Source: Planctomycetota bacterium
Lineage (GTDB): Bacteria; Planctomycetota; UBA11346
Direction of reading: 5' to 3'
DNA: 64,000 nucleotides
Assembly: GCA_013816485.1 (NCBI GenBank)
Contig: JACDEI010000002.1
Location: 34,322 to 98,321 of the forward strand
The notes under the pieces were generated by a model, which did not search any database, was not told where the DNA came from, and saw only the letters and a program-made list of their open reading frames with translations. The number at the start of each line of letters is the position of its first letter. Positions within the stretch are counted from its first letter, which is position 1. Made by a program: the position numbers and the translations under genes. Positions 6,120 to 49,250 of this stretch are shown here, piece by piece.

Positions 6120-6193
6120 TGGAGCGGGTGAAGGGAATCGAACCCTCGTATGTTGGATGGGAACCAACCGCTCTACCATTGAGCTACACCCGC
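6120..6193 (-). tRNA. tRNA-Gly (anticodon CCC)
   Basis: Hand-folded 74-nt cloverleaf. Acceptor GCGGGUG/CACCCGC. Anticodon stem GUUGG/CCAAC with loop UU-CCC-AU. T-loop UUCGAUU. Discriminator U then CCA. Confidence 0.85.
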
Positions 6194-6325: not shown

Positions 6326-6403
6326 TGGTCGGGGCGACAGGATTTGAACCTGCGACCTCTGCGTCCCGAACGCAACGCTCTAGCCAAGCTGAGCTACGCC
6401 CCG
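6326..6403 (-). tRNA. tRNA-Pro (anticodon CGG)
   Basis: Hand-folded 78-nt cloverleaf. Acceptor CGGGGCG/CGCCCCG; the C1:G72 pair is typical of bacterial tRNA-Pro. Anticodon loop UU-CGG-GA. T-loop UUCAAAU. Discriminator A then CCA. Confidence 0.85.
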
Positions 6404-6801: not shown

Positions 6802-8312
6802 GAACGGGCCTCCACCGCGCTGAGTTTGTCGTCGAACGCCGCCGCTGCCGCTTGTGGCATGCGGGCGAGCACCGGAGCGAGGGCTTGATAGACCTCGGTG
6901 GCGGCTTTACGCGGCTGATAGGCGATCCGCTGACCGACCATCTTCGAGCACGCTTCTGGCACGTTCTTGTAAAGACCGACCGAAGAACTGGCGAGAATCG
7001 CCGCGCCCGTCGCGGCGCATTCGGCGCCTGGCACCGCGAAGATCTGCCGGTCGAGCGCGTCCGCGAGGATCTGGCACCACAGGGTGTTGCCGGCACCGGA
7101 ACCGACCACCAGCACCTGTTCGGGTTCGCGCTTCATGTCACTCAGGGCATCGAGGGCGGAGCGTAGCGACATCGCGCCGCTTTCGAGCACAGCACGCACC
7201 AGGTGGCCACGTCCGTGTTGCCGGCCCAATCCAACAAAGCCGGCCATCTTGGGCGACACGCGGGACTGGAGGTGGAGCAGTCCTTCGGATCCCGGTGGGA
7301 TTTCCGCAGCGAGTTCGGCGAGCGGCTCCAACGGATCACGCTGTGCGCGTTTCGCCTGCATGACTTCGCTGGCGAACACGTGCTGCTGCAACCAGTCGAG
7401 CGGCTCTGGCCCGGCGAGATCGGACTGCGCCAATGCCCAGGTGCCAGCAAGCGTGTGGCAGGTGGAGATGAGGCGGTTGCTCGGGTCGCGCACGGCATCG
7501 CCGGTTGGTGCGAAGATGCCGCCAACACCACCGAGTTCAGCCATCACGCCACCCGGAGCAAGCACGCCCGCCGCCACGGCTGCGGATGAAGCGTGACCGC
7601 CACCGGTGATCACGGGAGTTCCCGACTGCAAACCGGCTTCTCGCGCGGCGGTGCTGGTGACGCGACCGCTGATCAGTTGTCCGCTGCTGATGGTCGGCAA
7701 CCACGCGGGATTGATGTCGAGCAGGCTGAGCAGTTGCTTCGACCACGCGCGGGTCTTGGGATTGAACAGCAAGGTGGCAGCGGCGTCGGAAGCGTCGGTG
7801 ACCAGGGTTTCGCACAGGCGGAAGCGCAGGAAATCCTTGGGGCTGAGCACCACCCCGAGATCATGCCACACGCGTTTCTCATTCTCGCGCAACCACAGGA
7901 GCTTCACCGCGGTTGCGCCGCCATGCGCGACACCGCTTGCGAGATTCAGCAGATTACGCGCACCGACCGTGCGATTGAGCAGGTCGATCTGCGATTCAGC
8001 TCGTGGATCGGTCCCCAGGCTGCTGGTGCACAGGACCTTGCCATCCTTGGACAGCGCCACCATGCCGTCGCTGTCACCGGTGACGCCGATGCAGCGGATC
8101 TGATCGGCTTTCAATTCAGCGCGACGCAGGATCTCCTTGATGCCGGTGCGGGCCGCCCGCCACCAATCCTGGGGATCGAACAATTGATCGGTCCCGCCAC
8201 CATAGGCGCGGTGCAACGACGCGACTTGTTGGCCGTCACCAGAAAGTACGACTAAACCCAAGCCGGTGCGGGCGACGTCGATACCAAGAAAGTAGGCTGT
8301 AGGTGAGGGCAT
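6798..8312 (-). CDS. FGGY-family carbohydrate kinase (xylulokinase/glycerol-kinase-like)
   Basis: N-terminal FGGY signature YFLGIDVARTGLGLVVL and overall architecture of about 500 aa. The 4-nt overlap with ftsB points to an operon. Confidence 0.7.
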   Translation of the reverse strand: MPSPTAYFLGIDVARTGLGLVVLSGDGQQVASLHRAYGGGTDQLFDPQDWWRAARTGIKEILRRAELKADQIRCIGVTGDSDGMVALSKDGKVLCTSSLGTDPRAESQIDLLNRTVGARNLLNLASGVAHGGATAVKLLWLRENEKRVWHDLGVVLSPKDFLRFRLCETLVTDASDAAATLLFNPKTRAWSKQLLSLLDINPAWLPTISSGQLISGRVTSTAAREAGLQSGTPVITGGGHASSAAVAAGVLAPGGVMAELGGVGGIFAPTGDAVRDPSNRLISTCHTLAGTWALAQSDLAGPEPLDWLQQHVFASEVMQAKRAQRDPLEPLAELAAEIPPGSEGLLHLQSRVSPKMAGFVGLGRQHGRGHLVRAVLESGAMSLRSALDALSDMKREPEQVLVVGSGAGNTLWCQILADALDRQIFAVPGAECAATGAAILASSSVGLYKNVPEACSKMVGQRIAYQPRKAATEVYQALAPVLARMPQAAAAAFDDKLSAVEARS

Positions 8313-8438
8313 TTTGGATAATTAGCTGGTTACCCTAGGGGCGATTGTTACAACCGTCAAGCACAACGATGATGGATTTGGTTCCTGGTGTTTGGCCTAA
8401 AGCCAGCGCCGGCAATACCCTCGACCGGGAGATGTGCC

Positions 8439-9338
8439 ATGAGCAGCGTCCGACGTGCGTGGTTGATCCCAATGTTTTTCCTGGCGGCCTGTTCCTGGGA
8501 CTTGCTCCCCGGTGACGAGTTGTACCTGACCGATGGTCGAGTCATCGAAGGCGAGATCATCTCCGCCGCCGACGCCGACGTCATCGACATCAGGGTCGGC
8601 ACTGCAGGGCTGGTGGCGATCCAGCATTTTCCCAGGGCCAAGGTCCAGCGGGTGGTGCATCGGGTCTCTGCACGCCAGACCGCGATGAACGAAGTGCAGC
8701 AGCAGATCGATGCGCTGAGCGCAAAGCCTGATGCCACCGCTGCGGAGTGGTGGACCTTGACGCGCAAATTGCAGGAGCGCGGTGAATCGGCGACCGCCAG
8801 GGATCTCGCGACGCGGGTGGTGGTACTCGATCGCCATCACGCGGAAGCACGCAAGATCCTCGGCATGGTGCGCCACCACGGCGTATGGATGCGGGCAAAC
8901 GAGATCGCCACCGCGCGTGGCGAGGTGTTCTTCCGCGGTGCCTGGGTGACCTGGGCCGCACAGGAGGACGCCCTCGCCGATGAAGCCCGGAAGCGCGAAG
9001 AGCTGGCGGCGCACCGTAAGGAGCGCGAGGAAAACCGGCGCCAGGCGCGCATCGCCGCCGCTGAGAGCGCGGCTGCCATGCAGGAGACCTACGTCAGCAA
9101 CTACTACCGTTCACCCTACTACAACCCCTACGGCGGGTCGTTCTACGGTGGGTCGTATTACCAGAACGGGTTCTACGGGAGCAGCGGGCACTACGGCTAT
9201 CGTCCCGGTTACCGGCCGGGCTTTCCGGTGGTCGCCCAGCCTTGGTGTGCTCCAGGGGGATGGCACATCGGAGCCACTGGCAGGGGCAGCAACCACGCGT
9301 GGGCCTTCCGCTGGAACGGTTCTGGCGTCTTCCCCTGA
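8439..9338 (+). CDS. Secreted/lipoprotein-like hypothetical protein with charged coiled-coil middle and Tyr/Gly-rich C-terminal tail
   Basis: Signal peptide MSSVRRAWLIPMFFLAACSW. Charged helical region (EARKREELAAHRKEREENRRQ). Low-complexity tail YYRSPYYNPYGGSFYGGSYYQNGFYGSSGHYGYRPGYRPG. Confidence 0.5.
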   Translation: MSSVRRAWLIPMFFLAACSWDLLPGDELYLTDGRVIEGEIISAADADVIDIRVGTAGLVAIQHFPRAKVQRVVHRVSARQTAMNEVQQQIDALSAKPDATAAEWWTLTRKLQERGESATARDLATRVVVLDRHHAEARKILGMVRHHGVWMRANEIATARGEVFFRGAWVTWAAQEDALADEARKREELAAHRKEREENRRQARIAAAESAAAMQETYVSNYYRSPYYNPYGGSFYGGSYYQNGFYGSSGHYGYRPGYRPGFPVVAQPWCAPGGWHIGATGRGSNHAWAFRWNGSGVFP

Positions 9339-9469
9339 GGGCATGGCGGCATTCCCAGAGCATACGGGAGCCCCGGACTTGACGGAAGCCCGGTCGCCAT
9401 AGAGTCCTGCCCTCCGCGAAACCGGGTGCGCCGGCAGGCGGTCTAATCAACTTCTGGAGATACGTTTCA

Positions 9470-9865
9470 ATGGCTGGCAAGGAATACATCTGGGGTCTCG
9501 GTCGTCGTAAGACCAGTGTCGCCCGCGTTCGCATCGCTCCTGGCAATGGCTTGGTGCTGATCAACGACCGCAAGATCGAGGAATACTTCCCGGTCGACCG
9601 TCTGCAGAAGATGGCGCGCAAGCCCTTGGAAGTGACCGAGACTGCCGCGCGTTTCGACGTGTTCGTCAACGTCGACGGCGGTGGCATGACCGGTCAGGTC
9701 GGTGCGTGCATGCTCGGCATCTCGCGCGCTCTGGCCAAGGCCGAGCCGGCCACTGAAGCCGCTCTCCGTCGCCACGGTCTGATGACCCGCGACAGCCGTA
9801 TGGTCGAGCGCAAGAAGTACGGTCTGCGCAAGGCCCGCCGCGGTTGCCAGTTCAGCAAACGCTGA
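9470..9865 (+). CDS. rpsI: 30S ribosomal protein S9
   Basis: Full-length S9 with the conserved C-terminus KKYGLRKARRGCQFSKR. Confidence 0.95.
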   Translation: MAGKEYIWGLGRRKTSVARVRIAPGNGLVLINDRKIEEYFPVDRLQKMARKPLEVTETAARFDVFVNVDGGGMTGQVGACMLGISRALAKAEPATEAALRRHGLMTRDSRMVERKKYGLRKARRGCQFSKR

Positions 9866-9890
9866 ATCGGCATCGAGGTTGGACTCACGG

Positions 9891-9921
9891 CACCCAGGGC
9901 ATCGCCCTGGGTGTTTCCGTT
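9891..9921 (+). terminator. Rho-independent terminator after rpsI
   Basis: Perfect 10-bp hairpin cacccagggc-atc-gccctgggtg followed by tttccgtt. Confidence 0.6.
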
Positions 9922-10038
9922 GGTGGCGCCGTCATCCCGCCTCATCACCGAAGCGCCCTCCAACTGGATGCAGAATTTTTCCGCGTGTGGGGAGGGGGCC
10001 GGCTTGCGCCCTGCCGGGTGGATTTACCATCTCCGCCC

Positions 10039-10761
10039 ATGGCTGCCTCCACCCTGCGTCCGCGTCTGCTCAAACTCTCAGGCGAGGCGCTCCAGGCACG
10101 CGAGGGCATCCTCGACTGGCACATCGTGGAACGGGTGTGCAGCGAACTACTCAGCGGTCTGCCACGTGGCCCGGTCGCGGTGGTGGTCGGCGGCGGCAAC
10201 ATCATGCGTGGTGCCGAGATGCGCGGTCGAGGAGCCGGCGATCCCACGCGCGGCGACTACATGGGCATGCTTGCGACGCTGATCAACAGCCTGGCGCTCA
10301 AGGAAGGCATCGAACGGCAAGGGGGGCGGTGTGAAGTGGTCGCTCCCCATCACATCCCCAATGTCTGTCACCAGTACAATCGCGCACAGGTCATGGCTTG
10401 GCTCGCCGCTGGTACCGTGGTGGTCTTTGGTGGCGGCACTGGTCATCCTTTTTTTACCACCGACACCACTGCGGCGCTGCGCGCAACCGAGATCGGCGCA
10501 GCAGAGTTGCTCAAAGGGAGCAAGGTCGACGGCATCTACACCGCGGATCCGAAGAAGGTCACCGACGCCAAGCGCTTCGATTTCCTGACCTTCGATCAAG
10601 CGGTAGAAGGTCGTTACGCGGTGATGGATGCCACGGCCTTTCCCATCTGTCGTGACCATCGCATCACCATCCGCGTATTCGACATGACCGTGGCGGGAGC
10701 GATCGCCGCCGCCCTGGGGCCGAATCCTCCAGGCACGCTGGTTGGTGACCAACCACGTTGA
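10039..10761 (+). CDS. pyrH: UMP kinase
   Basis: 241 aa with the UMP-kinase signature (VVVGGGN, GDYMGMLATLINSLAL). Start is MAASTLRP at 10039. The ORF-track extension back to 9844 is spurious. Confidence 0.9.
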   Translation: MAASTLRPRLLKLSGEALQAREGILDWHIVERVCSELLSGLPRGPVAVVVGGGNIMRGAEMRGRGAGDPTRGDYMGMLATLINSLALKEGIERQGGRCEVVAPHHIPNVCHQYNRAQVMAWLAAGTVVVFGGGTGHPFFTTDTTAALRATEIGAAELLKGSKVDGIYTADPKKVTDAKRFDFLTFDQAVEGRYAVMDATAFPICRDHRITIRVFDMTVAGAIAAALGPNPPGTLVGDQPR

Positions 10762-10822
10762 TTCCGTTTCCCGCTTCCTCGTCTTTCGTTTCCACACCCC
10801 AGGCACCACGCCAGGAGCACCG

Positions 10823-11383
10823 ATGAGCTTTGAGACTGAGATCAAGGACTGCAGCGCCAAGTTTGACAAGGCGCTGGGTTCACTCGCCCATGACTTCAAG
10901 CACATCCGCACCGGACGTGCGAGCGTGGCGATGATCGAACACGTCCAGGTCGATGCCTATGGCAGCCGTATGCCGATCGCCCAGTGCGCTGGCCTGTCGA
11001 TTCCAGAACCGGCGCAGATCCTGATCAAGCCGTGGGACAAGGGCCTGATCAAGGCCATCGAAAAAGGTCTGACCGAGGCTCAACTCGGCATGATGCCGCA
11101 GAGCGATGGTGTGGTCATCCGGCTGCAGGTGCCGGCGCTGTCCAGCGAGCGCCGCAAGCAATTGGCGTCTGAAGCCAAGGAAGCGACCGAGAAGTGCAAA
11201 GTAGCGATGCGCAACCTGCGCCGCGATGTGATCAAGGCGATCGAGACCAAGGGCAAGGCCGACAACCTGCCCGAGGACGCGACCAAGAAGGCGAGCGAGA
11301 AGATCAGCGAACTGCTCAAGCAGTACGAAACCAAGGCCGAGTCGTCGTTGAAGGAAAAGACCGACGACATTCTCAAGTTCTGA
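10823..11383 (+). CDS. frr: Ribosome recycling factor
   Basis: 186 aa. Matches RRF throughout, and the pyrH-frr order is conserved. Start MSFETEIKD at 10823. Confidence 0.9.
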   Translation: MSFETEIKDCSAKFDKALGSLAHDFKHIRTGRASVAMIEHVQVDAYGSRMPIAQCAGLSIPEPAQILIKPWDKGLIKAIEKGLTEAQLGMMPQSDGVVIRLQVPALSSERRKQLASEAKEATEKCKVAMRNLRRDVIKAIETKGKADNLPEDATKKASEKISELLKQYETKAESSLKEKTDDILKF

Positions 11384-11537
11384 ACCATTACGGCGATCAG
11401 CGTGGGGCTAGGGATTCGGGGCTAGGGCTAGGGTAGTGGATTGTTTGCGGCCGGTGGTGCCGTACGCGTCGGTAACGTCTGCGCACCGACCCTAATCCCT
11501 GATCCCTAACCCCTTTCGCTCTCGCTCCTGAGAAAAA

Positions 11538-11578
11538 CAAACGAGGCGGAGGATTTCCTCCGCCTCGTTCAGTTTTTC
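11538..11578. terminator. Bidirectional rho-independent terminator between frr (+) and the coiled-coil gene (-)
   Basis: Perfect stem aacgaggcggagg/cctccgcctcgtt with an A-run on the 5' side (gagaaaaacaa) and a T-run on the 3' side (cagtttttcc). Confidence 0.7.
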
Positions 11579-11597: not shown

Positions 11598-14500
11598 TCA
11601 GACGGTCTTGAAGCCGCCCGAAGGTCCGCCGCTGGCGTTGTTGTCGGTCAGGCGGCGGATGCGGGCCTTCAGGCCGGCATTCTCCTCCTTCAGCTTGCGG
11701 TTGTCGTCGCGCACGGTCGCGGCGGCATCGCGCAGTTCGACCATCTCCTTCTGGACCTTCTCCTTCGAGTTGCCGACATCCTTGCGCTTCTCGTCGAGCT
11801 GGGACTTGAGCTGGGCGGTCATGCTGTTGGCGTCGGCCAGATCGGCTTCGATCTGCCGCAGCTTCTCGCGCAGGCTGTCGCGTTCGCCGTGCAGGTGCTT
11901 CAGCTCGCGCGCCAGGTCGGTGGTCTTGGCGGTGGCTCCGGCATGGGCACCGAAGACTGTCTCCAGTTCCTTGATGCGATCGTTGGCTTGGCTGATCTCC
12001 TTGGTCAGTGCCGATACCTGCGCTTCTAGTCCCTTGCTGTCGGCGCGCTGTTCGGCGAGATCCTTGAGTTCGCTATCCTTCTTGTCGATCACCTGATCGC
12101 GTTCGGCCAAGCGCTTGGTCAACTCATCGCGTTGGGCCTTGAGCCGTGCGTCGGCCGCCTGGGCACGTTCCAGGGCCTCGCTGAGCTGGCTTTCGATCTC
12201 GGCGCGGTTCGCCCGTTCCTTCTCAATCTCTTGGCGCAGGCGATCGATGTCGCTGCTCATATGGCCGGAAGAGGCACCATCGCGCGCCTGGTAATCCGCC
12301 ACCTCGGCCTGGGCCAGACGCAATTGCTCGCGCAGTTGCTTGAGCTCGGCCATGGCATCGTCGCGGTTGCGGCGTTGTTCCATCACTTGGTTGAGCAGTT
12401 CCGACTGCTCGGCCTTAGCCTTCTCGATGCCGTCAGCGAGGTTCTGAAGCTGATGGTCGCGATCGACCACCGCAGCGCGCAAGGCAGCAAGTTCGTTGTT
12501 GAGGGCGTCCTCGCTGCGTTTGGTCGCAGACAGTTCGCCACGAGCCTGTTCCATGTGTTCGGCCAAGGTCTGGAGACGGTCCTTGAGCGCGTGAACGTAG
12601 GCTTGGCCAGCACTGGCGAGCTGCTCCGGGCCAGCCGCACGGGCGAGGTCGAGCTTCTGCCCGGCTTTACTCAGCGGATCAGCCTGATCGGCATCGGTCA
12701 GTGCGCGGGCGACGGTGGGCGAGGCGTCCTGACGGTTGGTCAGTGAGCGCAAGGCCTGGACCAACTGCGTCTGGGTGTGCTCCGCGGCGTCGCCACGCTG
12801 ATGTTGTTCGCCCAGTTCGCGCAGCAGGCGTTCCTGTTCGCGTTGGGCCTCGACCAGTTTGGTGCTGGTCTGTTGCAGCCGGCGATCTTGTTCCTCGACG
12901 CGCTGGGCGGCGACATCGAGTTCGGCCTTGATGCTCGCGACCTCGCCGCGGGTGTTGGTGAGCTCCTGCACCTTAGCTGACAGGTCCTTGCCCTGCATGG
13001 TGAGTTCGTGGCGCACAGCCTTGACTTCGGCCTGGCTGCTGCGCAACGACGCTTGTTGTTCGTCGACGTGCTTCTGTGCGGTGGCGACCTCGCCGCGGAG
13101 TTTTTCGAGCTGGCCCTTGAGCGAATCCTGGTCCTCCTGCGCGCGCTTGAAGCTGGTGGTCATCTGCGCACGGCGGGCGAGCAAGGCCTCGGCGAGCTTC
13201 CGTCCGCTTTCGGCGAGTTGCAGGCTGAGGTTCTCGGGAATGCTGACCGCGTCCTCGCCTTCGTCCGGCAGTTGCGACAGCGCCAGTTCCAGGTCGACGC
13301 GTTTGTCTTCGACTTCTCCGGTGTGTTGGTCCTTCTCCATTGAGGCGAGGGTCGAGAGTGCTTCGGCCAGTTGGCGGTTGGCGGTCTCGGCGGACAGCGT
13401 GCGGCCCTGCAAACGTGTAAGCAGCGCCTCGTTTTCGCCGGAGCTGCGCTTGATCGCTTCCAGTTCCTGGACGGTGCGCTCCTTCTGCTGCGTCAGGAGG
13501 TTGATGACCTCCTTGCCGCTGGCAGCCATCTCGTCGCGTTCGCCTTCAAGGGTGACGGCGCGTTCGTTGGCTTCCTTGAGCTGCCACTTGAGCGCGTTGG
13601 TATCCTGCTGCAGTCGTTCAGCCTGCTGTGCCAATGCCTGACGGCGCTGGGCGAGCTGGGCGACGCCGGCGGCGACTTGACGGCTGACGGTCGCAGGATC
13701 GACCGGCTGGTTGCTGGACGGGGTGTCTTCCAGCGACAAGGCGAGGTCCGCGATGGTTTCGGCCAGTTCAGGGTCGTCCTTGGCGGCGCTCACCAGTTCG
13801 GTGGCGACCGCACGGTCGGCTTCGCTCTGCGCCGTCGCCGCGGCGCTCAACGCTGCGTGTTCGCCGCGGGTCTTGGCCAGATCGGCATCAGCATCGCGCA
13901 GACGCTGTTCCATGGTGGTGAGCTGCGAGAAGGCCTTGCCACGTTCCGCTTCGAGCACGGTGCGCCGGCTGTTGGCTTCCTGCGCCTGGTTGCGCATGAG
14001 GTCGAGGTCGGTGCGCGCACGGCTGAGATCGCGTTCCAGTTCCTGGACGTTCTGCTGGGCCTCGGTGAGGCTCTTGCTGAGCTTCTGCTGTTCGCCGTGC
14101 AGATTGGCGCCACGCGTTTCGGCTTCCTGCGCCTTGGAGCGCAGACCGTCAAGTTCGCCGCGCAGGCGTTTGTTCTCTTCGTCGAGATCCTGTTTGCGGC
14201 GTGATAGTCCGGTCACGGCTTCGCGCAGCGCCGGTACCAGATTGTCATCGTCGCCGGCATCGCTGGCGAGAGCGAGGTCGGTCACCGAATCGGCGAGTTG
14301 GTCATCGCCCTTGGCGGCACGTACCACTTCCTGCGCCATCTCGCGTTCGGCGCGGCGTTGGGCTTCGCCACGCGCTTGGACGGCGGCGACTTCACCCTTG
14401 GCCTTGGCGACGTCATCCTCGAGCGAGCGGATCTTCTGCTGGGCTTGGCCGATCTGACTGGCGAGACGACCGCGTTCCTCATCGAGACGCTTGAGATCGG

Positions 14501-16217
14501 TCTGCGAGGGGGCCTTGGCCAACTGCTCGCGCAGGTGCTGGATGACCTGCTGGGTGGCATTGCCGACCTGCGCCGGTTCCTGTGCGTCATCGAGGGCGCG
14601 GTTGAGTTGCACCACGCTGGCGTCGAACTTCTCGTCGCCTTGTTGTTCGGGAGAAATGTCGGCGCGGGTTTTTGCCAGCGCACGGACCTCTTCAGCCACC
14701 GCCTTCTCACGCCCCTGGGCGGCGGTGAGGGCCTGCGATTTCTCCTTCATCAGACGCGCGAGTGCCGCGCTGTCCTCGCGCAGACGGGCGATCAGCGCTT
14801 CGTCGGTGGAATCCTTCGCTGGCGGGGCCATGCGCACGCCAGCCTCGTCACCGAGCAGACGATCCATCAGGACGAGTTGCTCGCTGATGATCGGCTTCAC
14901 GTCGCCGCCACCCTTGATGTTCTTGATGATCTCATCTGCCTTGGCGGTGCTTTCCGCAAGCGGCGCGTCTTCGTCCACCAGCGCGGTGGGCACGTGTTGC
15001 TTGTCGGCCTTCGCGCGTTCGGCGATGGTTCCGAGCACCTGCATGTAGGCTTTGCGCACCTCGCCGAGTTCCTCCTCGGCGGTGTTGCGCGCTTCGTCGG
15101 CCTGGTCGGCCATCTCCTTGAGCGCGACCATACGCTGACGGCCACGCGCCAACACCGCGGCGAGTTCGCGTGCCACGCTGGTGGTGCCGGCGATGACTTC
15201 GGCGGGAGCTCCGCTCTCGGTCGAAGGAACGGCGGAGATGGCATCCTCGCGGCCGGCGGCGACGCCGAGCGCCTGTTTGCCGGTATGTTCGAGCTGTTGT
15301 GCTTCGCTGCGCGCGCCGTTCATCGCTTCGACCAGTCCTTCGACCGGTTCGGCGACGTCCACGGCGGCAAGGCTGCCGCCCTTGAGCTGTTCGAGCAGGG
15401 CGAGATCGCCTTCCAGCAGGTTCATGCGTGGATCGGTGGCCAAACGCTCGGTCTGCTTCTGCGCGCTCTGGGCGATGCCGCGCAGACGCTGCAAGTCGTT
15501 CGACAGGGTGTCGATAACCTTCGCGCCGACATCGTAGTCGTGATAAAATTGTTCTTCATCCGGCGCGTCTTCGGGAACCGGATTCTCGTCGACATGGCGT
15601 CCGCCGTAGAGCTGGCTGTCCAAACCGAGCACGCCCTCGACCAGGGTGTTGGCACGCAGCATGTAGTTCTTCAGCGCCTGCTTGTGCTTGTCGGCCAGTT
15701 CCTCCTTCTCGGCGAGGGTGGTGCTGGCGAGTGCGCGGTTGTTGGCGAGCTGGTCTTCGATCTCGTATTTGTCCTGCTGCAACTCTTCGATCATCTGCTC
15801 GCGTTCGGCGAGCGCTTTCTTGAGGCTGTCGATCGCTTCAGTGGCTTGTTCGGCGCTGGCGGCGCTCGACTGGGACTCGGCGACCTTGGCCATGGCCTTG
15901 TCGAGGTCGGCCTTCATACGGTCGCGCTCGCCCTGGGTGTCCTGCTCGCGCTTGATGCGTTTGGCCAGCTCTTCCTGAACCTTCTTCAGCATCTCCTCTT
16001 TTTCTTTGTCGCTGATGCTGTCGACCTTGCCCGCCATGTGGCGGGTGATCACCGTATTCACCCAATCCATCAGCTGCTTCTCGGTGATGACCTTGAGCTT
16101 CTTGCTCTGGCCCTTCGTTCGCACCAGTTCCGCGGCGGTGGTGCTTTCGCCCAGGCCCGCCAGGGATTGCGACAGGTCTTCCATCGGCTGCTCGGGTTTC
16201 ATCGGCTTCGCAGGCAT
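11598..16217 (-). CDS. Giant (1539 aa) coiled-coil protein with no recognisable enzymatic domain
   Basis: One uninterrupted ORF of 4.6 kb. The composition is dominated by E/A/L/R/Q/K heptad-like repeats after a short globular N-terminal region of about 60 aa. No TM helix and no Walker motifs. Confidence 0.8.
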   Translation of the reverse strand: MPAKPMKPEQPMEDLSQSLAGLGESTTAAELVRTKGQSKKLKVITEKQLMDWVNTVITRHMAGKVDSISDKEKEEMLKKVQEELAKRIKREQDTQGERDRMKADLDKAMAKVAESQSSAASAEQATEAIDSLKKALAEREQMIEELQQDKYEIEDQLANNRALASTTLAEKEELADKHKQALKNYMLRANTLVEGVLGLDSQLYGGRHVDENPVPEDAPDEEQFYHDYDVGAKVIDTLSNDLQRLRGIAQSAQKQTERLATDPRMNLLEGDLALLEQLKGGSLAAVDVAEPVEGLVEAMNGARSEAQQLEHTGKQALGVAAGREDAISAVPSTESGAPAEVIAGTTSVARELAAVLARGRQRMVALKEMADQADEARNTAEEELGEVRKAYMQVLGTIAERAKADKQHVPTALVDEDAPLAESTAKADEIIKNIKGGGDVKPIISEQLVLMDRLLGDEAGVRMAPPAKDSTDEALIARLREDSAALARLMKEKSQALTAAQGREKAVAEEVRALAKTRADISPEQQGDEKFDASVVQLNRALDDAQEPAQVGNATQQVIQHLREQLAKAPSQTDLKRLDEERGRLASQIGQAQQKIRSLEDDVAKAKGEVAAVQARGEAQRRAEREMAQEVVRAAKGDDQLADSVTDLALASDAGDDDNLVPALREAVTGLSRRKQDLDEENKRLRGELDGLRSKAQEAETRGANLHGEQQKLSKSLTEAQQNVQELERDLSRARTDLDLMRNQAQEANSRRTVLEAERGKAFSQLTTMEQRLRDADADLAKTRGEHAALSAAATAQSEADRAVATELVSAAKDDPELAETIADLALSLEDTPSSNQPVDPATVSRQVAAGVAQLAQRRQALAQQAERLQQDTNALKWQLKEANERAVTLEGERDEMAASGKEVINLLTQQKERTVQELEAIKRSSGENEALLTRLQGRTLSAETANRQLAEALSTLASMEKDQHTGEVEDKRVDLELALSQLPDEGEDAVSIPENLSLQLAESGRKLAEALLARRAQMTTSFKRAQEDQDSLKGQLEKLRGEVATAQKHVDEQQASLRSSQAEVKAVRHELTMQGKDLSAKVQELTNTRGEVASIKAELDVAAQRVEEQDRRLQQTSTKLVEAQREQERLLRELGEQHQRGDAAEHTQTQLVQALRSLTNRQDASPTVARALTDADQADPLSKAGQKLDLARAAGPEQLASAGQAYVHALKDRLQTLAEHMEQARGELSATKRSEDALNNELAALRAAVVDRDHQLQNLADGIEKAKAEQSELLNQVMEQRRNRDDAMAELKQLREQLRLAQAEVADYQARDGASSGHMSSDIDRLRQEIEKERANRAEIESQLSEALERAQAADARLKAQRDELTKRLAERDQVIDKKDSELKDLAEQRADSKGLEAQVSALTKEISQANDRIKELETVFGAHAGATAKTTDLARELKHLHGERDSLREKLRQIEADLADANSMTAQLKSQLDEKRKDVGNSKEKVQKEMVELRDAAATVRDDNRKLKEENAGLKARIRRLTDNNASGGPSGGFKTV

Positions 16218-16469
16218 AGCAACTCCTTGAAGGGACCGGCGCTAAGGGATAGCTGGGGTCCGCTCGGTATGACATGGGCCACGATGGACCGCGGGCCGTG
16301 AAGGGCAGCCACGCCGGGCGTCCGGCGGGGGCTCTTTGTGATACACGGGACGAGTGCGAGGTGCGAGGTGCGGTGTTTCCCCGCGCGCCGTTCAGGCCGA
16401 TCAGTCGGTTGGGCCATTGACCTTCGGCATCCCCCGTACGAGGGCACCTCGCACCTCGCACCTCGCACC

Positions 16470-16508
16470 GACCCAACAAAAGCACCCCGGCGGGAATCCG
16501 CCGGGGTG
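16470..16508 (-). terminator. Rho-independent terminator after the peroxiredoxin gene
   Basis: Hairpin caccccggcgg-gaat-ccgccggggtg. On the minus strand it is followed by gcttttgttggg. Confidence 0.6.
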
Positions 16509-16539
16509 CGCACGTCGTGACCCGAAAGCTCCGGACGGT

Positions 16540-17130
16540 TTACTTGTTGGCCGAGGTGAAGTAAGTCTTCGAGCCCTTGGGGTCGGCCTTCATGGTGGCC
16601 TTGCCTTCGGTCCAGTTGGCTGGGCACACTTCGCCGTGCTTGGCAACGTACTGGAAGGCTTTGATGACGCGCAGGGCCTCATCGACGTTACGACCGACCG
16701 GCAGATCGTGGACGATCGCGGCGCTGACGACGCCTTCCGGGTTGATCAGGAACAGGCCGCGCAGCGCGATGCCAGCATCTTCGATCAGCACGCCGTAATC
16801 ACGGGCGATCGACTTGTTGAGGTCGGCCACCAGCGGGTAGCCCAGGTCGCCCAGACCGCCGTCTTTGCGCGGGGTGTTGCGCCAGGCGAGGTGGGTGAAC
16901 TGGCTGTCGACCGAGACGCCAATGACTTCCGCGCCGAGGGCGTGGAAATCCTTGATGCGATCGCTGAAGGCGATGATTTCGGTCGGGCAAACGAAGGTGA
17001 AGTCGAGCGGGTAGAAGAACAACGCGACCCACTTGCCCTTGTAGTCTGTGAGCTGGACTTCCTTGATGGTGCCGTCGGCGAGGACCGCCTGGGCCTTGAA
17101 GTTGGGGGCTTTCTTCTGGACGAGGGACAT
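16540..17130 (-). CDS. 2-Cys peroxiredoxin (AhpC/Tsa family)
   Basis: Peroxidatic-Cys motif FTFVCPTEI and resolving-Cys region GEVCPANW. 196 aa. Confidence 0.9.
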
Positions 17131-17418
17131 GATGCGCTCCGTTGAATGATTGGGGTGAAAACCAAGGTTTGCGTGGCCCGTCAGGTGACGGGGACCACGG
17201 CGGGACGGGCATGCTGCCCCCGACCGTACGCTGTCAATCGGAGCCTGGGGCGGTTGGCGGCGCGTCGCGTTCCTGATGCAGCCCGCCGCCGCACGGATAT
17301 CCGCCGAACCATCCCTTTACCCCATGGTGCGGCCACGCTACATCCCCTCCGAGCCGGCACGGACGCCGTCGATCGCCAAGGAAGGGGTCGCCACTGCCTT
17401 ATGCGTGATCGAGGTCCC

Positions 17419-18615
17419 ATGGACATCCTGGTGGTCGATGATGATGCGTTGTCGCTACGCCTCCTGATCGCCCTGGTCGAGAAACTCGGACACCATCCGA
17501 TCAGCGCCACGGACGGGCTGAGCGCCTGGGAGTTGTACCGCAAACACGATTGCCGGGTGGTGATCAGCGATTGGAACATGCCTGGGCTCGACGGCATCGA
17601 ACTGCTGACGCGCATTCGTTCGCTGCCCGGTCTGGGCTACACCTATTTCATCATGCTGACCTCGCGCAGCGATCGTGAGGATGTCACCGCCGGCATGGCC
17701 GCCGGTGCCGACGACCTGCTGATCAAACCGGTCAGCCGTGATGATCTGGATGCGCGGCTGAATGTTGCGCGGCGCATCGTCTCGCTCCAGCAGGAGGTGT
17801 CGCAGCGCAATCAGGAATTGTCGGCGGTGAACGAGCGGATGCGCCAGGATCTGCAGGCCGCGGTGCGGGTGCAGGAGGCGTTGTTGCCGGTGCATCTGCC
17901 GCGCATCGCGGGCCTGGAGTTTGCCTGGCTCTACCGGCCGTGTGACCAGTTGGGTGGCGATACGCTCAACCTCTACCGCCTGGACGAGCACCACCTCGGG
18001 TTCTACGTCCTCGATGTCAGTGGTCACGGCGTGTCGTCGGCCTTGCTGGCGGTGCAGGTCAGCCGCTTCCTGTCGCCGTTGATCGCTGCCGGGGCCTTGC
18101 CCAAACGGGCGATCGAGCAGGTGCCGGGTTACCGCCTAGCCGCGCCGTTGGAGGTGGTGCGTGAATTGAACGAACTGTTTCCGATGAGCGATGCGGCGAT
18201 GCAATATTTCACCATCATCTACGGCCACTACCACATCCCGAGCCACACCATCCATCTGGCCTCGGCGGGACATCCAGGCCCGATCGTCACCCATCGCGAT
18301 ATTCCTGCCACGGTGTACGACCTATCGAGCAATCCGATCGGTTTCTTCCCCAACGACAGCGCACAGTTCGCCGAGGCCAGCATCGCCATCGCTCCCGGCG
18401 ATCGCATCCACTTCATCAGCGATGGGGTGGTGGAGACCATGAGCGAGACGCGGGAGATCCTCGGACTCGAGCGCTTGGCCTCACTTTTGACCACGGTGGC
18501 GGGCGAACCGGTGGCGGTCGCCCAGGAACACCTGGTCGAGGCCCTGACACGGTGGCGTGGTGCGACGCCGCCGACCGACGATGTGTCGATCGTCACCATT
18601 GAGCGTCGTGGCTGA
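17419..18615 (+). CDS. Response-regulator receiver domain fused to a PP2C/SpoIIE-type Ser phosphatase
   Basis: Receiver region MDILVVDDD...DWNMPGLDG...DDLLIKP followed by the PP2C region (GGDTLNLY, VLDVSGHGVSSA, ASAGHP, ISDGVVE). An alternative start at 17401 (MRDRGP) is possible. Confidence 0.8.
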   Translation: MDILVVDDDALSLRLLIALVEKLGHHPISATDGLSAWELYRKHDCRVVISDWNMPGLDGIELLTRIRSLPGLGYTYFIMLTSRSDREDVTAGMAAGADDLLIKPVSRDDLDARLNVARRIVSLQQEVSQRNQELSAVNERMRQDLQAAVRVQEALLPVHLPRIAGLEFAWLYRPCDQLGGDTLNLYRLDEHHLGFYVLDVSGHGVSSALLAVQVSRFLSPLIAAGALPKRAIEQVPGYRLAAPLEVVRELNELFPMSDAAMQYFTIIYGHYHIPSHTIHLASAGHPGPIVTHRDIPATVYDLSSNPIGFFPNDSAQFAEASIAIAPGDRIHFISDGVVETMSETREILGLERLASLLTTVAGEPVAVAQEHLVEALTRWRGATPPTDDVSIVTIERRG

Positions 18616-18662
18616 GCGCCCACTCAGACACCGCCCGCTGAAGCAGGTGCACGTGGGACGGG

Positions 18663-20042
18663 ATGGACAGGCGGGCAGTGCTGGGATACTCCCCGGCCCG
18701 CACGCCCAGGACCTCGCCCGTGTCGATCTTGCCTCCACTTGAAGTTTCGCGCCGCTCACCGCTGTGGCCGGCCGTGCTCGTCACCATCCTCACCGGGATG
18801 GGATTCGCCGGGCTTAAATTCGTCCTGATTGGTGAGATCGCCTTGGGATTTGATCCCGCTCATCCACCGATCATGCCGTTCAAGTGGTTGGATGACGTGC
18901 TGCACAGCGCCATCGCCAAAGGGACGTTGAAAGAGGCCATTACGCAGGGATTGGCCGCCGTTCTCACACTGGGGGTGTTGATCGGCTATCTGGTGAACGC
19001 ACCGCTGGCCGGAGCCTGGCGAGTGGCGTGGTTGTTTGTCTTATCGTCCGCCGGCGTCGGCCTCGGTGCCTTGTTGACGCTGTGGTTCAATCCGTGGCTG
19101 ACGTCGTTGTTTGTTGGGCTTGCCTATGGCACGGCCTGTGCCGCACGCGGCAAAGTGGTGCCGCTCATCGCGGCTGCGAGCGGTCGTTCCAACACTCTGG
19201 TGATGGGCGTCATCAACGCATCCCTGGTCATCAGCCTTTTGGCCGGAACGGTCATGGGCACACTCCTCAATGAGAAGATCGACAGCGCGACAACGCGCCA
19301 TGTGGCACTCTTTCTGTTCGCTGTCCTGGCGACCGTGGTTGGGTTAAAAGTTAATCCGCCGGAAGGTCCAGCCATTCCGTTCGCGGTGGGCATGCGCGAT
19401 CTGGTGATGGGCACTGCCGTGATGGTGCGCGACCGTTGGGCGCTGATCGTGGGCGGTGGCTTGGCCTGGGGCATCGCATCTGCCGCGGTACTGGCGGCCT
19501 TCATCGATGCGATCGAACGCCTTAACATGAAACCGGAACATGCGGTCATTCTGGTTATTTTCCCGGCTATTGGCGCTATTATCGGCAACCTCGCTTCCTA
19601 CCGCATGGATCGCAACGTGCATGTGGTCGTTGCCTACGTTGCCCTTGGCGCGCTGATTGCCGGGTACCAGATCCTGGTCCAAGGCTTTCTCTCAGGTGCT
19701 TTTTCGTTGGTGTTCTTGGGCGCTCTGTTCGCCGCGCCCACCAACGTGTTGGATGCGAAGTTGATGGCGTTTGCCGCGGCACAGGGCAATCCAGGACGTG
19801 GCTCGACCGTGATGAGTCTGGTGCACAACTTCTTCATTCTGGTCATCGGAAGTGGTTTGGCGATTGCACTCTTTCTGGGGTGGATGCGCCCGGTGGACCA
19901 GTTCTATTCCTTGGCCGGGGTCGCCATCATCACCGCCATCGTCACGATCTGGGCGCACCTGGATGACGCCGACCCATCGGTCAAGCCATTCGAGGGGTCC
20001 GAGGAAATGGGGAAGTCCGAGAAGGCCGCTGCCCAGATGTAA
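18663..20042 (+). CDS. Polytopic membrane protein, possibly an MFS-type transporter
   Basis: About 12 predicted hydrophobic helices. It lies 48 nt downstream of the RR-PP2C gene on the same strand. Exact start is uncertain. Confidence 0.45.
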   Translation: MDRRAVLGYSPARTPRTSPVSILPPLEVSRRSPLWPAVLVTILTGMGFAGLKFVLIGEIALGFDPAHPPIMPFKWLDDVLHSAIAKGTLKEAITQGLAAVLTLGVLIGYLVNAPLAGAWRVAWLFVLSSAGVGLGALLTLWFNPWLTSLFVGLAYGTACAARGKVVPLIAAASGRSNTLVMGVINASLVISLLAGTVMGTLLNEKIDSATTRHVALFLFAVLATVVGLKVNPPEGPAIPFAVGMRDLVMGTAVMVRDRWALIVGGGLAWGIASAAVLAAFIDAIERLNMKPEHAVILVIFPAIGAIIGNLASYRMDRNVHVVVAYVALGALIAGYQILVQGFLSGAFSLVFLGALFAAPTNVLDAKLMAFAAAQGNPGRGSTVMSLVHNFFILVIGSGLAIALFLGWMRPVDQFYSLAGVAIITAIVTIWAHLDDADPSVKPFEGSEEMGKSEKAAAQM

Positions 20043-20208
20043 GAAGCTGTCTTGTAAGACCGAAATTCACATGGAGGACCGGAGAACCGGAGAGAGGCGA
20101 GAAACGAAGTGTCGGTGAACATCCGAGGTTCCGCAGCTCTGTCTTCCTCCGGTCCTCCGGTCCTCCATGTCCGCCTTGCCTTTCAAGACAGCTTCTAAGG
20201 CGGAGGTT

Positions 20209-20781
20209 TCAGTCGGTGGCTGCCAGCTCGGCGTATTCCGCCGGCAGGGTCACCGACACCGACGTCCCCAGCAGTTCCAGATTCACCACCAGTTCAAATT
20301 CGTGGCTGCGTCGGGCGATCACGCCGTTGCAGCCGGCGAAGGTGCCGCTGGTAATGGCGATGCGTTTGCCCGGCACCAGTTCGGGTCGTACCACCAGCGG
20401 AGTGGTGCTGGCGGTGACTAGGGTGATGAGGTGGCGCAGGTCGGCGGTGAGTTCCTGCGGTCTAGGTACATCGATGATGCGCACGACGCGGCGGGTGTCG
20501 TAGATCGCCTGGTATTCAGCGCGCCCACCCGCGACGAAGAGGTAGCCGGCGATGAGCGGCACCAGGCTCTCCTGCGTGCCTTTGCCTGGGTAATGCCGCA
20601 GGCGCCGCTCGAAGAACGCGAGGCCGGGAAGATTGCGCGCGCGCAGCGCGGCGATGACCTGTTTTTCCTGGCGTGGATAGGCATGCACCACCAGCCAGTG
20701 GTCCTGCGGCAAGGCGGCGCTGAAGCCCGCCGGCCAATCCTGCACCACCCCGATGGAGGTCACCTTCACCTGCTGGGCCAC
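20209..20781 (-). CDS. NusG-paralog transcription antiterminator (UpxY/RfaH/LoaP-like: NGN + KOW)
   Basis: NGN-like region HWLVVHAYPRQEKQVIAALRARNLPGLAFFE...PLIAGYLFV. KOW motif GKRIAITSGTFAGCNGVIARR. Confidence 0.6.
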   Translation of the reverse strand: MAQQVKVTSIGVVQDWPAGFSAALPQDHWLVVHAYPRQEKQVIAALRARNLPGLAFFERRLRHYPGKGTQESLVPLIAGYLFVAGGRAEYQAIYDTRRVVRIIDVPRPQELTADLRHLITLVTASTTPLVVRPELVPGKRIAITSGTFAGCNGVIARRSHEFELVVNLELLGTSVSVTLPAEYAELAATD

Positions 20782-20915
20782 ATCGCCTCCACGTCCACCG
20801 TGACGCTGCCATCACCTGCCATCGGCTCAAGCAGCGAGCCGCCGTCGCGGGCACGTGCGGACTTGCGACAGCGCAGCGCGATCGATAACCACGCGCCCCG
20901 CCGTCTGGAGGATTC

Positions 20916-21881
20916 ATGCTGCATCAGCTCACCGTGCCTGCGCAGGCCGCCGGCCAACGGTTGGACGTGTGGCTGGAATCCGTGCTCGACGGTTGCACCC
21001 GCAGCCTGATCAGCCGCTTGATCAAGGACGGTCGTTGCGTGGTCGAGCCCGGGGTGTCCAAGGCAGGTCATTTCCTCAAGGGCGGTGAACGGGTGGCTTT
21101 GGAAGTCCCCGAGATCGAGCCGATGGAGGCGCTGCCGGAAAACATCCCGCTGACCATTCTGCACGAAGACCGGCATCTGATCGCCATCGACAAACCACCG
21201 CGCATGGTGGTGCACCCGGCGATCGGTCATCAGCGTGGAACACTGGTGAACGCAGTCCTCGGCCGTTATGGCAGCGTGTTGCCAAACCCCGACGGCAGTG
21301 ATGGCGCTTGGCGCCCAGGCATCGTCCATCGGCTCGATCAGGATACGAGCGGCGTGATCCTGGTCGCACGCACCACGGCGGCGTTGACCTTTCTGCAGGA
21401 CGCCTTCAAGGCGCGCGAGGTGAACAAGCGCTACCTGGCGTTGGTCGCGGGCAAACCGCGGGCGGATTTCATGGAGCACGCCGGGTGGCTGGGGCGGCAC
21501 CCACGCGATTTCCGCAAACGTGCGGTGCTGCCAGACGGCAGCGCCGACGCGAAGGAAGCCTACACCAGCGTGGTCGTGCTTGAGCGACGTACGGGTTACA
21601 GCGTGGTCGAAGCCAGACCCAAGACCGGGCGTACGCACCAGGTGCGCGTCCATCTGGCGGCGCTTGGCCATGCGGTGCTGGCCGATCCGACTTACGGTCG
21701 CAGCGCCACGTGGCCGCTGGTGCCGGTGGAAGGGCAGCCAGCACTCCGCCGGCATGCGCTGCATGCGTGGACGCTCGATGTGCCGCATCCCGATGGTGGA
21801 CGGCTGAAGCTCCAGGCACCGCTGCCGGTGGATTTCGTGCCGTGGGTCAGCGCCGGGTTGTCGCCACGTGCGGTGCGCTGA
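20916..21881 (+). CDS. RluA-family 23S rRNA pseudouridine synthase (RluD/RluC-like, with S4 domain)
   Basis: S4-like N-terminus (RLDVWL). Catalytic motif HRLDQDTSGVILVA. 321 aa. Confidence 0.85.
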   Translation: MLHQLTVPAQAAGQRLDVWLESVLDGCTRSLISRLIKDGRCVVEPGVSKAGHFLKGGERVALEVPEIEPMEALPENIPLTILHEDRHLIAIDKPPRMVVHPAIGHQRGTLVNAVLGRYGSVLPNPDGSDGAWRPGIVHRLDQDTSGVILVARTTAALTFLQDAFKAREVNKRYLALVAGKPRADFMEHAGWLGRHPRDFRKRAVLPDGSADAKEAYTSVVVLERRTGYSVVEARPKTGRTHQVRVHLAALGHAVLADPTYGRSATWPLVPVEGQPALRRHALHAWTLDVPHPDGGRLKLQAPLPVDFVPWVSAGLSPRAVR

Positions 21882-21893
21882 CACGCGGGCAGA

Positions 21894-49087: not shown

Positions 49088-49250
49088 CGGCTCCACCAGC
49101 GGCGCATGTGGCAAAGGATGGCGCGCCGGCAGCGCTTCGGAAGGGTGGAGGTGGGGATGGGAGCAATCCCCACGCAGACGCTGGCAAGCCGCTGAATTGC
49201 AGCGGACTTCCTGACTTCCTGACTTCCTGACTTCCGCGACACTCCCCAGC

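Follow-up and report, generated by a model that had tools for sequence, protein, structure and literature searches.

This analysis concerned a 64,000-nt stretch of DNA from a Planctomycetota bacterium (assembly GCA_013816485.1, contig JACDEI010000002.1, positions 34,322 to 98,321), here called the window, and one gene within it. Coordinates are those of the window unless a related locus is named. On the minus strand, between frr and ahpC, lies a gene for a giant coiled-coil protein of 1539 amino acids (aa). The protein has two conserved end modules joined by a long, segmented rod, and it matched no known protein family. A role as a structural scaffold or tether appears to be the best explanation, with odds that are about even.

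A giant gene and the three-part anatomy of its product

The gene, its ribosome-binding sequence, and the parts of the protein were located as follows.

11598..16217, minus strand: coding sequence of the coiled-coil protein, 1539 aa plus stop codon, ATG start (open reading frame [ORF] list and translation)
16223..16228, minus strand: Shine-Dalgarno sequence AAGGAG with a 5-nt spacer to the ATG (read directly from the sequence)
14958..16217, minus strand: N-terminal module, residues 1-420, in which conservation across the family is highest
12348..14957, minus strand: segmented rod, residues 421-1290 (heptad scan, periodicity of 3.5, and positions of indels)
14118..14420, minus strand: rod repeat module 1, residues 600-700, ..AQEVVRAAKGDDQLADSVTDLALASD.. 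(hhalign to residues 780-880)
13578..13880, minus strand: rod repeat module 2, residues 780-880, ..ATELVSAAKDDPELAETIADLALSLED.. (hhalign to modules 1 and 3)
13128..13430, minus strand: rod repeat module 3, residues 930-1030, ..ANRQLAEALSTLAS..VDLELALSQLPDEGE.. (hhalign to modules 2 and 4)
12528..12830, minus strand: rod repeat module 4, residues 1130-1230, ..TQLVQALRSLTNRQDA..DPLSKAGQKLDLARAAGPEQLA.. (hhalign to module 3 and to residues 470-575)
11601..12347, minus strand: C-terminal module, residues 1291-1539, found at the extreme C terminus of most members

Translation of 11598..16217 gave an uninterrupted reading frame, and the AAGGAG sequence also precedes the start codon in the related loci L002, L006, and L022. 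The product is 100% identical to P0001, a protein from a Planctomycetes metagenome-assembled genome (MAG), the cluster of which also includes MBA3697531.1. Compared to the 85%-identical orthologue in locus L001, the ratio of nonsynonymous to synonymous substitution rates (dN/dS) was 0.12 overall, and by part it was 0.065 for the N-terminal 420 aa, 0.10 for the rod, and 0.26 for the C-terminal 250 aa. The homologues and these ratios mean that the ORF is a true gene under constraint.

The composition of the protein is 15% Ala, 11% Leu, 11% Glu, 8% Gln, 8% Arg, 7.5% Asp, and 6.6% Lys, with two Trp residues and no Cys. No transmembrane (TM) helix was found anywhere in the 1539 residues; because the highest-scoring 19-residue Kyte-Doolittle window reached only 1.1, the protein is considered to have neither a membrane helix nor the core of a signal peptide. 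The absence of a hydrophobic segment predicts a cytoplasmic protein. Pattern searches of the protein detected no Walker A sequence ([AG]xxxxGK[ST]), no Walker B sequence, and no LSGG signature. In these respects, the initial annotation of this locus, made from the DNA sequence without database searches, described the gene well: the single 1539-aa ORF that it reported is present with its ATG and AAGGAG, the composition rich in Glu, Ala, Leu, Arg, Gln, and Lys agrees with the residue counts, and both the TM helix and the ATPase head are absent, as it had claimed.

Conservation was uneven along the protein. In an alignment of 31 sequences, it peaked at residues ~30-400 and ~1290-1530, and when residues 1-420 and 1281-1539 were used as BLAST queries, both pieces were recovered in almost every member of the family, at the extreme N and C termini, respectively. 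The large indels seen in pairwise alignments all fell within residues ~430-1300. The clearest case is P0084, a protein of only 761 aa, in which hidden Markov models (HMMs) of the modules matched an N module at residues 2-417 and a C module at residues 525-761, the rod being nearly absent.

The N module (~415 aa) was present in nearly all of the 76 matches described below, at 42-93% identity. It contains a conserved peptide at residues ~14-45, LGESTTAAELVRTKGQSKKLKV, which was modeled with low confidence by AlphaFold2 (AF2), a coiled-coil neck at residues ~70-188, and a partly non-heptad helical region at residues 190-404 with the motifs LVEGVLGLD..LYGGRH, EEQFYHDYDVGAKVI, and AAVDVAEPVEGLVEA. 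The small N-terminal globular region of ~60 aa that was proposed at first is in fact a conserved module of ~415 aa.

The rod alternates between canonical heptad stretches and non-heptad helix-loop modules, and it is the site of the length differences within the family. BLAST comparison of the protein with itself detected no internal repeats, whereas profile-profile comparison did. For instance, hhalign matched residues 600-700 to residues 780-880 with a probability of 99.6% and an E value of 2e-23. The other matches, 780-880 to 930-1030, 930-1030 to 1130-1230, and 1130-1230 to 470-575, had probabilities of 89.6%, 91.7%, and 89.7%, respectively. Judged by these profile matches, the rod is a series of ~150- to 200-aa units, each consisting of a heptad stretch and a helix-loop module of the pattern A.ELV.AA.GD..LAD..ADLALA. 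The family varies in length because rod units were gained and lost, their number differing among lineages.

The C module (~240 aa) consists of two long heptad coils broken by conserved Gly/Ser-rich breaks, GASSGH at residues ~1314-1319 and G-AHAG at residues 1423-1427. It ends in a basic stretch, KARIRRL, and many charged residues in the module are invariant. In locus L017, a 747-aa tandem paralogue (12242-14485) that lies directly downstream of the family gene has the C module only, with 47% identity to residues ~1315-1527 of the window protein, and a second genome (L016, ~12406-13476) carries a shorter tandem paralogue, also with the C module only. The recurrence of the C module in a tandem paralogue fits a role in association between family proteins.

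Heptad windows were called strong if they scored above the 95th percentile of shuffled sequences. With this threshold, 44% of the residues were in strong heptad windows compared to 5% in the shuffles, and long non-heptad stretches were found at residues 162-231, 263-571, 617-703, 783-851, 892-1005, and 1136-1204. An almost continuous heptad coiled coil, as the protein had originally been described, is not what these figures show, though the protein is nearly all helical nonetheless. By Fourier analysis, the hydrophobic periodicity peaked at 3.49-3.51 in every rod segment, and the power at 3.64/3.67 was at background in all of them. In the segments to which a register was assigned, position a was Leu, Val, or Ile and position d was Leu or Ala, with mainly Glu or Asp at g and mainly Arg, Gln, or Lys at e. 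Given this pattern, general coiled-coil rules lead one to expect a parallel, two-stranded coiled coil.

AF2 models were built with family alignments. Residues 1-430 were modeled as all alpha with 79% helix, a predicted local distance difference test score (pLDDT) of 72, and a predicted template modeling score (pTM) of 0.31; within this segment, residues 290-430 scored 84-93. For a complete homologue of 1005 aa, the helix content was 86%, the pLDDT was 73, and the pTM was 0.27. The protein is predicted from these models to be almost entirely alpha-helical. Long heptad periodicity, predicted helix, and no other domain are the features that characterize the class of coiled-coil-rich proteins (CCRPs), and all of these were found here.

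A family of uncultured Planctomycetota outside the known protein families

A word-indexed search covering 5.8 billion proteins recovered 76 relatives, 1005-1951 aa in length and mostly 1400-1800 aa. Many of these align with the window protein from end to end, at identities from 100% down to ~31-37%. An exhaustive HMMER search, in which the N-module profile was compared to 1.84 billion cluster representatives, matched 122 proteins at E<=1e-3, of which 51 reached E<=1e-30. When the later representatives are included, family lengths range from 761 to 1951 aa. The distant relatives have lost the C module and retain parts of the N module, which correspond to profile positions 5-240 in some and to positions 166-233 plus 282-400 in others. 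No Pfam domain was detected in 55 representatives of the superfamily, in a search that also looked for fusions.

The relatives that carry an organism label come from Planctomycetota MAGs. The 16 loci taken from species-representative genomes are all in MAGs labeled Planctomycetota, except for one labeled "bacterium" and two labeled "Ca. Kuenenia". The latter two are high-GC loci (GC, 68%) that look misbinned or misnamed, and so does a single match labeled Rhodocyclaceae. For the FtsH protein encoded in the window, too, all relatives down to 56% identity were from unclassified Planctomycetota MAGs. In the freshwater lineages, P0029 was seen on more than 40 contigs. The source names of the relatives say nothing beyond "hypothetical" or "chromosome segregation ATPase". 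The second name is a widespread misannotation that the present analysis corrects: among the 76 relatives, there was one chance Walker A-like string and no Walker B or signature motif. From these sequence comparisons, the proteins constitute an undescribed, lineage-restricted family of uncultured Planctomycetota, which falls inside the known class of bacterial CCRPs.

Comparison with collections of known families gave the following picture. The Pfam scan returned only eukaryotic coiled-coil families below threshold; it gave no match to Filament (PF00038) at E<=1 and none to the Response_reg receiver domain, and the N-terminal 430 aa were predicted to be all alpha, not alpha/beta. In the NCBIfam scan, SMC, Rad50, and ASRP models reached 18-72 bits compared to cutoffs of 300-1087, at arm positions only. 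The scores were 72 bits for TIGR02168 (SMC_prok_B; cutoff, 567), 54 bits for TIGR02169 (cutoff, 729), and 18-25 bits for the Rad50 models (cutoffs, 700-1087). PADLOC matches to LmuB and JetC were confined to the coil arms, and PHROGs matches to tape measure, minor head, and SbcC proteins covered the coil alone (E values, 5e-8 to 3e-3). The PDB gave no match at 1e-3 to the single sequence; with the N-module profile, its best matches were coil segments of dynein and GpsB at an E value of 0.02. Foldseek gave no fold match with an E value below 0.7. The profile search for membership in a known family, such as SMC proteins with degenerate heads, that the initial annotation had recommended was thus negative. 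Membership in phage tape-measure proteins or in anti-phage defense systems (LmuB, JetC) was considered and rejected, the matches being coil-only and the neighboring genes housekeeping ones.

Genome neighborhood and a conserved upstream motif

Around the gene, the following features were identified.

11538..11571, bidirectional: intrinsic terminator of frr and the coiled-coil gene, 13- to 15-bp stems, T-run on both strands
16338..16346, minus strand: gene-specific cis motif GTGTATCAC, 129 nt before the start codon (conservation in the core clade)
16345..16480, minus strand: long imperfect palindrome with tandem-heptamer arms GGTGCGA / TCGCACC, flanked by the ahpC terminator and the cis motif (fold, -79.9 kcal/mol; z = -6.0)
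16482..16509, minus strand: ahpC intrinsic terminator, 12-bp stem (11 GC pairs) followed by TTTTGTT
16540..17130, minus strand: ahpC, typical 2-Cys peroxiredoxin (Pfam AhpC-TSA and 1-cysPrx_C)

The coiled-coil gene is convergent with frr (10742..11383, PF01765). Three features of the surroundings that had been noted from the DNA alone were recovered here, namely, the position next to frr, the strong bidirectional terminator (a 13- to 15-bp stem at 11538-11571), and a repeat-rich upstream region, in which tandem heptamers occur as 2.7 copies of GTGCGAG at 16354-16372 and 3.7 copies of the complementary GCACCTC at 16444-16469. The region is a housekeeping one, with genes for an FGGY kinase, rpsI, pyrH, frr, the coiled-coil gene, ahpC, and a REC-PP2C (SpoIIE) protein, and beyond the latter, genes for an MFS-like membrane protein, a NusG-like protein, a pseudouridine synthase, and a thioredoxin-like protein, then pth, fpg, and ftsH.

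The most regular neighbor was ahpC, which directly precedes the coiled-coil gene on the same strand in 13 of the 19 informative nonredundant loci; loci with this adjacency range in GC content from 48 to 71% and in protein identity down to ~39-42%. frr/pyrH were found downstream in several loci, and an FtsH gene shares contigs with the coiled-coil gene in relatives. A PP2C gene stands beside ahpC in five loci, as REC-PP2C in the window, L002, L006, and L007 and as a receiver-less PP2C in L023. Since synteny of the whole region is conserved in the lineage, the ahpC adjacency is weak functional evidence.

Genes for signaling proteins were found near some members. Directly downstream of the family gene, L018 has genes for CheD and an HDOD protein; in L019, a gene for an HDOD protein is found downstream. 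Among the distant relatives, P0137 has an Hpt+HATPase_c kinase directly upstream, and P0145 has a PAS histidine kinase directly upstream and a pilin-like N_methyl protein downstream; four further contexts of distant relatives had no adjoining signaling genes. In L020 (GCA_016745075.1; GC, 45%), a family protein, P0094 (1556 aa), and the distant paralogue P0137 (1103 aa) are encoded 3 kb apart, the two genes occupying 8001-11312 and 14363-19033, and they are flanked by the Hpt+HATPase_c kinase, an Hpt protein, and an FtsX/ABC pair. Assigning a function through guilt by association was tried and rejected: no partner is universal, ahpC is insulated, and the nearby signaling genes vary by locus.

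The 322-nt region between ahpC and the coiled-coil gene has a GC-rich hairpin after ahpC in all 12 of the aligned intergenic regions, and the remaining spacer is unconserved except for one element. The terminator sequence suggests that the coiled-coil gene is insulated from its upstream neighbor. The conserved element is a motif with the consensus (C/G)TGTATCAC and the variants GTGGATCAC and GTGTATCAT. In all core-clade loci that include upstream DNA, with or without ahpC, it was found 77-158 nt before the gene (for example, at 2620-2627 in L002, 7873-7880 in L017, and 3413-3420 in L022), and it was absent upstream of the more distant relatives of the family. The exact 8-mer occurs essentially once per 12- to 20-kb locus, always upstream of the family gene, and the exact 9-mer GTGTATCAC is unique in the 64-kb window. 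Because it occurs once per locus, at a fixed place, and independently of ahpC, the motif is regarded not as a general promoter hexamer but as a cis element specific to this gene in the core clade. Its possible roles are those of an operator, a special promoter element, or an element of the 5' untranslated region. The motif is also alike at 6-7 of 9 positions to the reverse complement of the DnaA box (TGTGGATAA), which may be a coincidence. In L019/L012 (309-5694), a type I-E CRISPR-Cas gene set and a gene for a phage-type integrase stand in the place of ahpC upstream, and the GTGTATCAC motif is kept; mobile DNA can therefore break the conserved synteny while the motif stays.

A second imperfect palindrome, in which GGGCTAG-type repeats pair with 3.6 copies of CCCTAAT, is located at 11395-11525 (z = -2.2). 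No Rfam family was found at the two flanking palindromes or in the 5' region, and neither palindrome is conserved in the orthologous loci; in this genome, they may therefore represent REP/MITE-like elements. The genome seems to be prone to short tandem arrays. Tandem Repeats Finder detected octamer arrays of GGAGAACC (2.6 copies, 20073-20093) and TCCTCCGG (2.8 copies, 20145-20166), both shortly beyond the MFS-like ORF (18663-20042), and of GACTTCCT (3.9 copies, 49205-49235).

Some further observations concern the rest of the window. The start of ahpC (17130, minus strand) and that of the longest REC-PP2C ORF (17146, plus strand) are 15 nt apart; the true start of the PP2C gene is probably further downstream because the receiver domain begins at residue 94. 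A 372-aa ORF at 20766..21884 on the minus strand was dismissed as a conserved neighbor. It is an Arg/His-rich antisense shadow of the pseudouridine synthase gene (PF00849; 20916-21881, plus strand), and its conservation in tblastn is an artifact of this overlap. At 28651-32199 on the minus strand, an 1182-aa fusion of an MFS transporter with acyltransferase and AMP-binding parts may be an LplT/Aas-like lysophospholipid transporter/acyl-ACP synthetase. The sole Rfam matches in the window were tRNA genes on the minus strand at 1441-1512, 6123-6193, and 6329-6403.

Interpretation and comparison with known systems

The favored explanation, to which a probability of about 50% is assigned, is that the protein is a cytoplasmic, nonenzymatic structural scaffold or tether, a dimeric rod with working conserved ends that is made from its own transcription unit. 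The three-part anatomy is shown by the sequence data; we infer the dimerization, the orientation of the chains, and the role of the ends. Two chains would pair in parallel through the heptad segments. The rise of a coiled coil is ~0.148 nm per residue, and with ~1,100 residues, the extended dimer rod would measure up to ~160 nm. The non-heptad modules would act as joints and the repeat-built rod as a spacer, and the end modules would join rods end to end or laterally into a scaffold or else hold two partners at a set distance. Transcription would be separate, between the ahpC terminator and the gene's own bidirectional terminator, and would probably be controlled through the upstream GTGTATCAC element.

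Several points weigh against this explanation. The heptad and register analysis was a home-made scan run without predictor calibration, and the charge bias at positions e and g is modest. The global confidence of the AF2 models is low (pTM, 0.27-0.31), and for this reason, the modeled fold of the end modules and parallel, as opposed to fold-back, pairing are tentative. The genome context offers no consistent functional partner, the ahpC adjacency possibly being mere regional synteny, and all of the relatives are metagenomic proteins without a functional name.

One sub-case of the scaffold or tether is an intermediate filament (IF)-like polymer in the manner of crescentin, FilP, or Scy, in which rods self-assembling by their ends would give the cell its shape or polarity, as filaments or as a sub-membrane lattice. 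A long dimer-type heptad rod with its strongest conservation at both ends and a C module in common with a tandem paralogue are what such a polymer might show. To our knowledge, known Planctomycetota lack FtsZ and divide and shape themselves without it, and because of this absence, as yet undescribed scaffolds are expected in the phylum. But no homology to any IF-like family was found, the rod has three times the IF-type length and is interrupted by large non-heptad modules, its periodicity is not of the Scy/FilP type, and coiled-coil content by itself does not predict polymerization (PMC7002697); filament formation is thus a tentative suggestion, and a doubtful one. A polar or signaling adaptor in the manner of HmpF, FrzS/AglZ, or FimV, which would connect a machine for motility or secretion with a chemosensory or two-component pathway, is unlikely. 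It would account for the recurrence of signaling genes (REC-PP2C, CheD, HDOD, Hpt+HATPase_c, PAS kinase) near members and distant relatives, for the pilin-like protein downstream of P0145, and for a precomputed PF28019 match on P0121. Against this, the neighbors change between loci and four other distant contexts have no such genes adjoining; planctomycete genomes are rich in signaling genes, so that proximity by chance is likely; PF28019 was found on none of the 76 members, and a search seeded with P0121 did not retrieve HmpF; and the receiver domain is absent. Coupling to AhpC, for instance if the AhpC decamer/chaperone used the protein as a platform or had it as a client in oxidative stress, would explain why ahpC so often lies immediately upstream on the same strand (13 of 19 loci). 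This is very improbable, as a strong hairpin follows ahpC in every aligned locus, the motif is kept even where ahpC is missing, the coiled-coil protein has no cysteine, and the adjacency may be inherited rather than selected, the whole region being syntenic.

The reading suggested by automatic annotation is effectively refuted. A degenerate SMC/Rad50/MukB-type protein would have an antiparallel arm folded back on itself and heads formed from the N and C ends, and besides the name "chromosome segregation ATPase" that JGI auto-annotation gives to many members, the weak matches to SMC, Rad50, LmuB, and JetC models and the conserved ends around a variable middle superficially recall it. The matches are arm-only and far below cutoff (72 compared to 567 bits), and the Walker A, Walker B, and signature motifs are absent. 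The N module is predicted to be all alpha, lacking the beta-sheet core of an ATPase, and the C module consists of heptad coils; there is no hinge domain, and the indels in the rod are scattered, not paired. Hardly more credible is a secreted or surface fibrillar protein (an M-protein-like adhesin or S-layer anchor) or a prophage tape-measure or fiber protein. The length of the coiled coil and the weak PHROGs matches to tape-measure and minor head proteins recall such proteins, but these matches are coil-only (E values, 5e-8 to 3e-3), the protein has no signal-peptide-like hydrophobic N terminus, TM helix, or anchor, and the gene is in housekeeping synteny (rpsI, pyrH, frr, ahpC, pth, fpg, ftsH) with no phage genes.

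A bolder form of the scaffold explanation is that the protein forms the core of a new cytoskeletal or polarity apparatus in the FtsZ-less planctomycetes. The N and C modules would link parallel dimers of ~100-160 nm into a polar scaffold or a lattice that spans the cell, the number of rod repeats would tune its dimensions, and a dedicated GTGTATCAC-binding regulator, possibly tied to the cell cycle, would control it. Such an apparatus is speculative and improbable at present. Very few planctomycete structural proteins are known, and this family, which Pfam does not recognize, is under strong constraint and specific to its lineage. The clear anatomy of two conserved ends and a modular spacer offers handles, the end modules for interactions and GTGTATCAC for a regulator. 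It becomes more interesting only if it is shown to build a cytoskeletal or polarity structure; otherwise, it is one more large coiled-coil protein.

Compared to known systems, the window protein shares with SMC, Rad50, MukB, LmuB, and JetC the long coiled-coil arms, the conserved termini, and the automatic annotation, and differs from them in having neither head motifs nor a hinge, with arm-only matches far below threshold. It resembles Scy and FilP in its short non-coil N terminus, its very long rod, and a presumed scaffold role, and Scy, at ~1,300 aa, is similar in size. The rods of Scy and FilP, as Walshaw et al. (2010; reference 12 in PMC3718342) reportedly described, are built on an unusual 51-residue repeat with a non-heptad periodicity. 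In contrast to their 3.64-3.67, the window rod has a periodicity of 3.49-3.51; the sequences are not similar, and Scy and FilP come from another phylum. The likeness to crescentin and IF proteins lies in the dimer-type usage of positions a, d, e, and g and in the concentration of conservation at the rod ends. The window protein differs in having no Filament domain and in its rod of ~870-1100 aa with at least four large non-heptad modules, compared to ~310-350 aa with short linkers. With AglZ and FrzS it has in common a long coiled-coil tail and the response-regulator and other signaling genes nearby, but it is without their N-terminal receiver domain. Of the resemblance to Scy/FilP and AglZ that the initial annotation had drawn, the likeness in size and as structural scaffolds stands and family membership does not, given the periodicity and the missing receiver domain. 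Its wider proposal of a cytoskeletal or scaffold element fared similarly: a general structural scaffold survives all the tests that were run, and the named analogies do not.

For HmpF, a cyanobacterial motility CCRP (PF28019), a precomputed match was present only on the distant relative P0121 and on 0 of the 76 family members, and the search seeded with P0121 retrieved only the window family and no cyanobacterial HmpF. A link to HmpF, drawn from that one precomputed Pfam match, could not be substantiated. Cyanobacterial CCRPs have been surveyed (PMC7002697). No characterized CCRP is related to the window protein by sequence. What it shares with CCRPs in general is that they are large, cytoplasmic, dominated by coiled coil, nonenzymatic, lineage-restricted, and named hypothetical or mislabeled "chromosome segregation ATPase", and what the window family has as its own are the end modules of ~415 and ~240 aa and a rod built from homologous units of ~150-200 aa.

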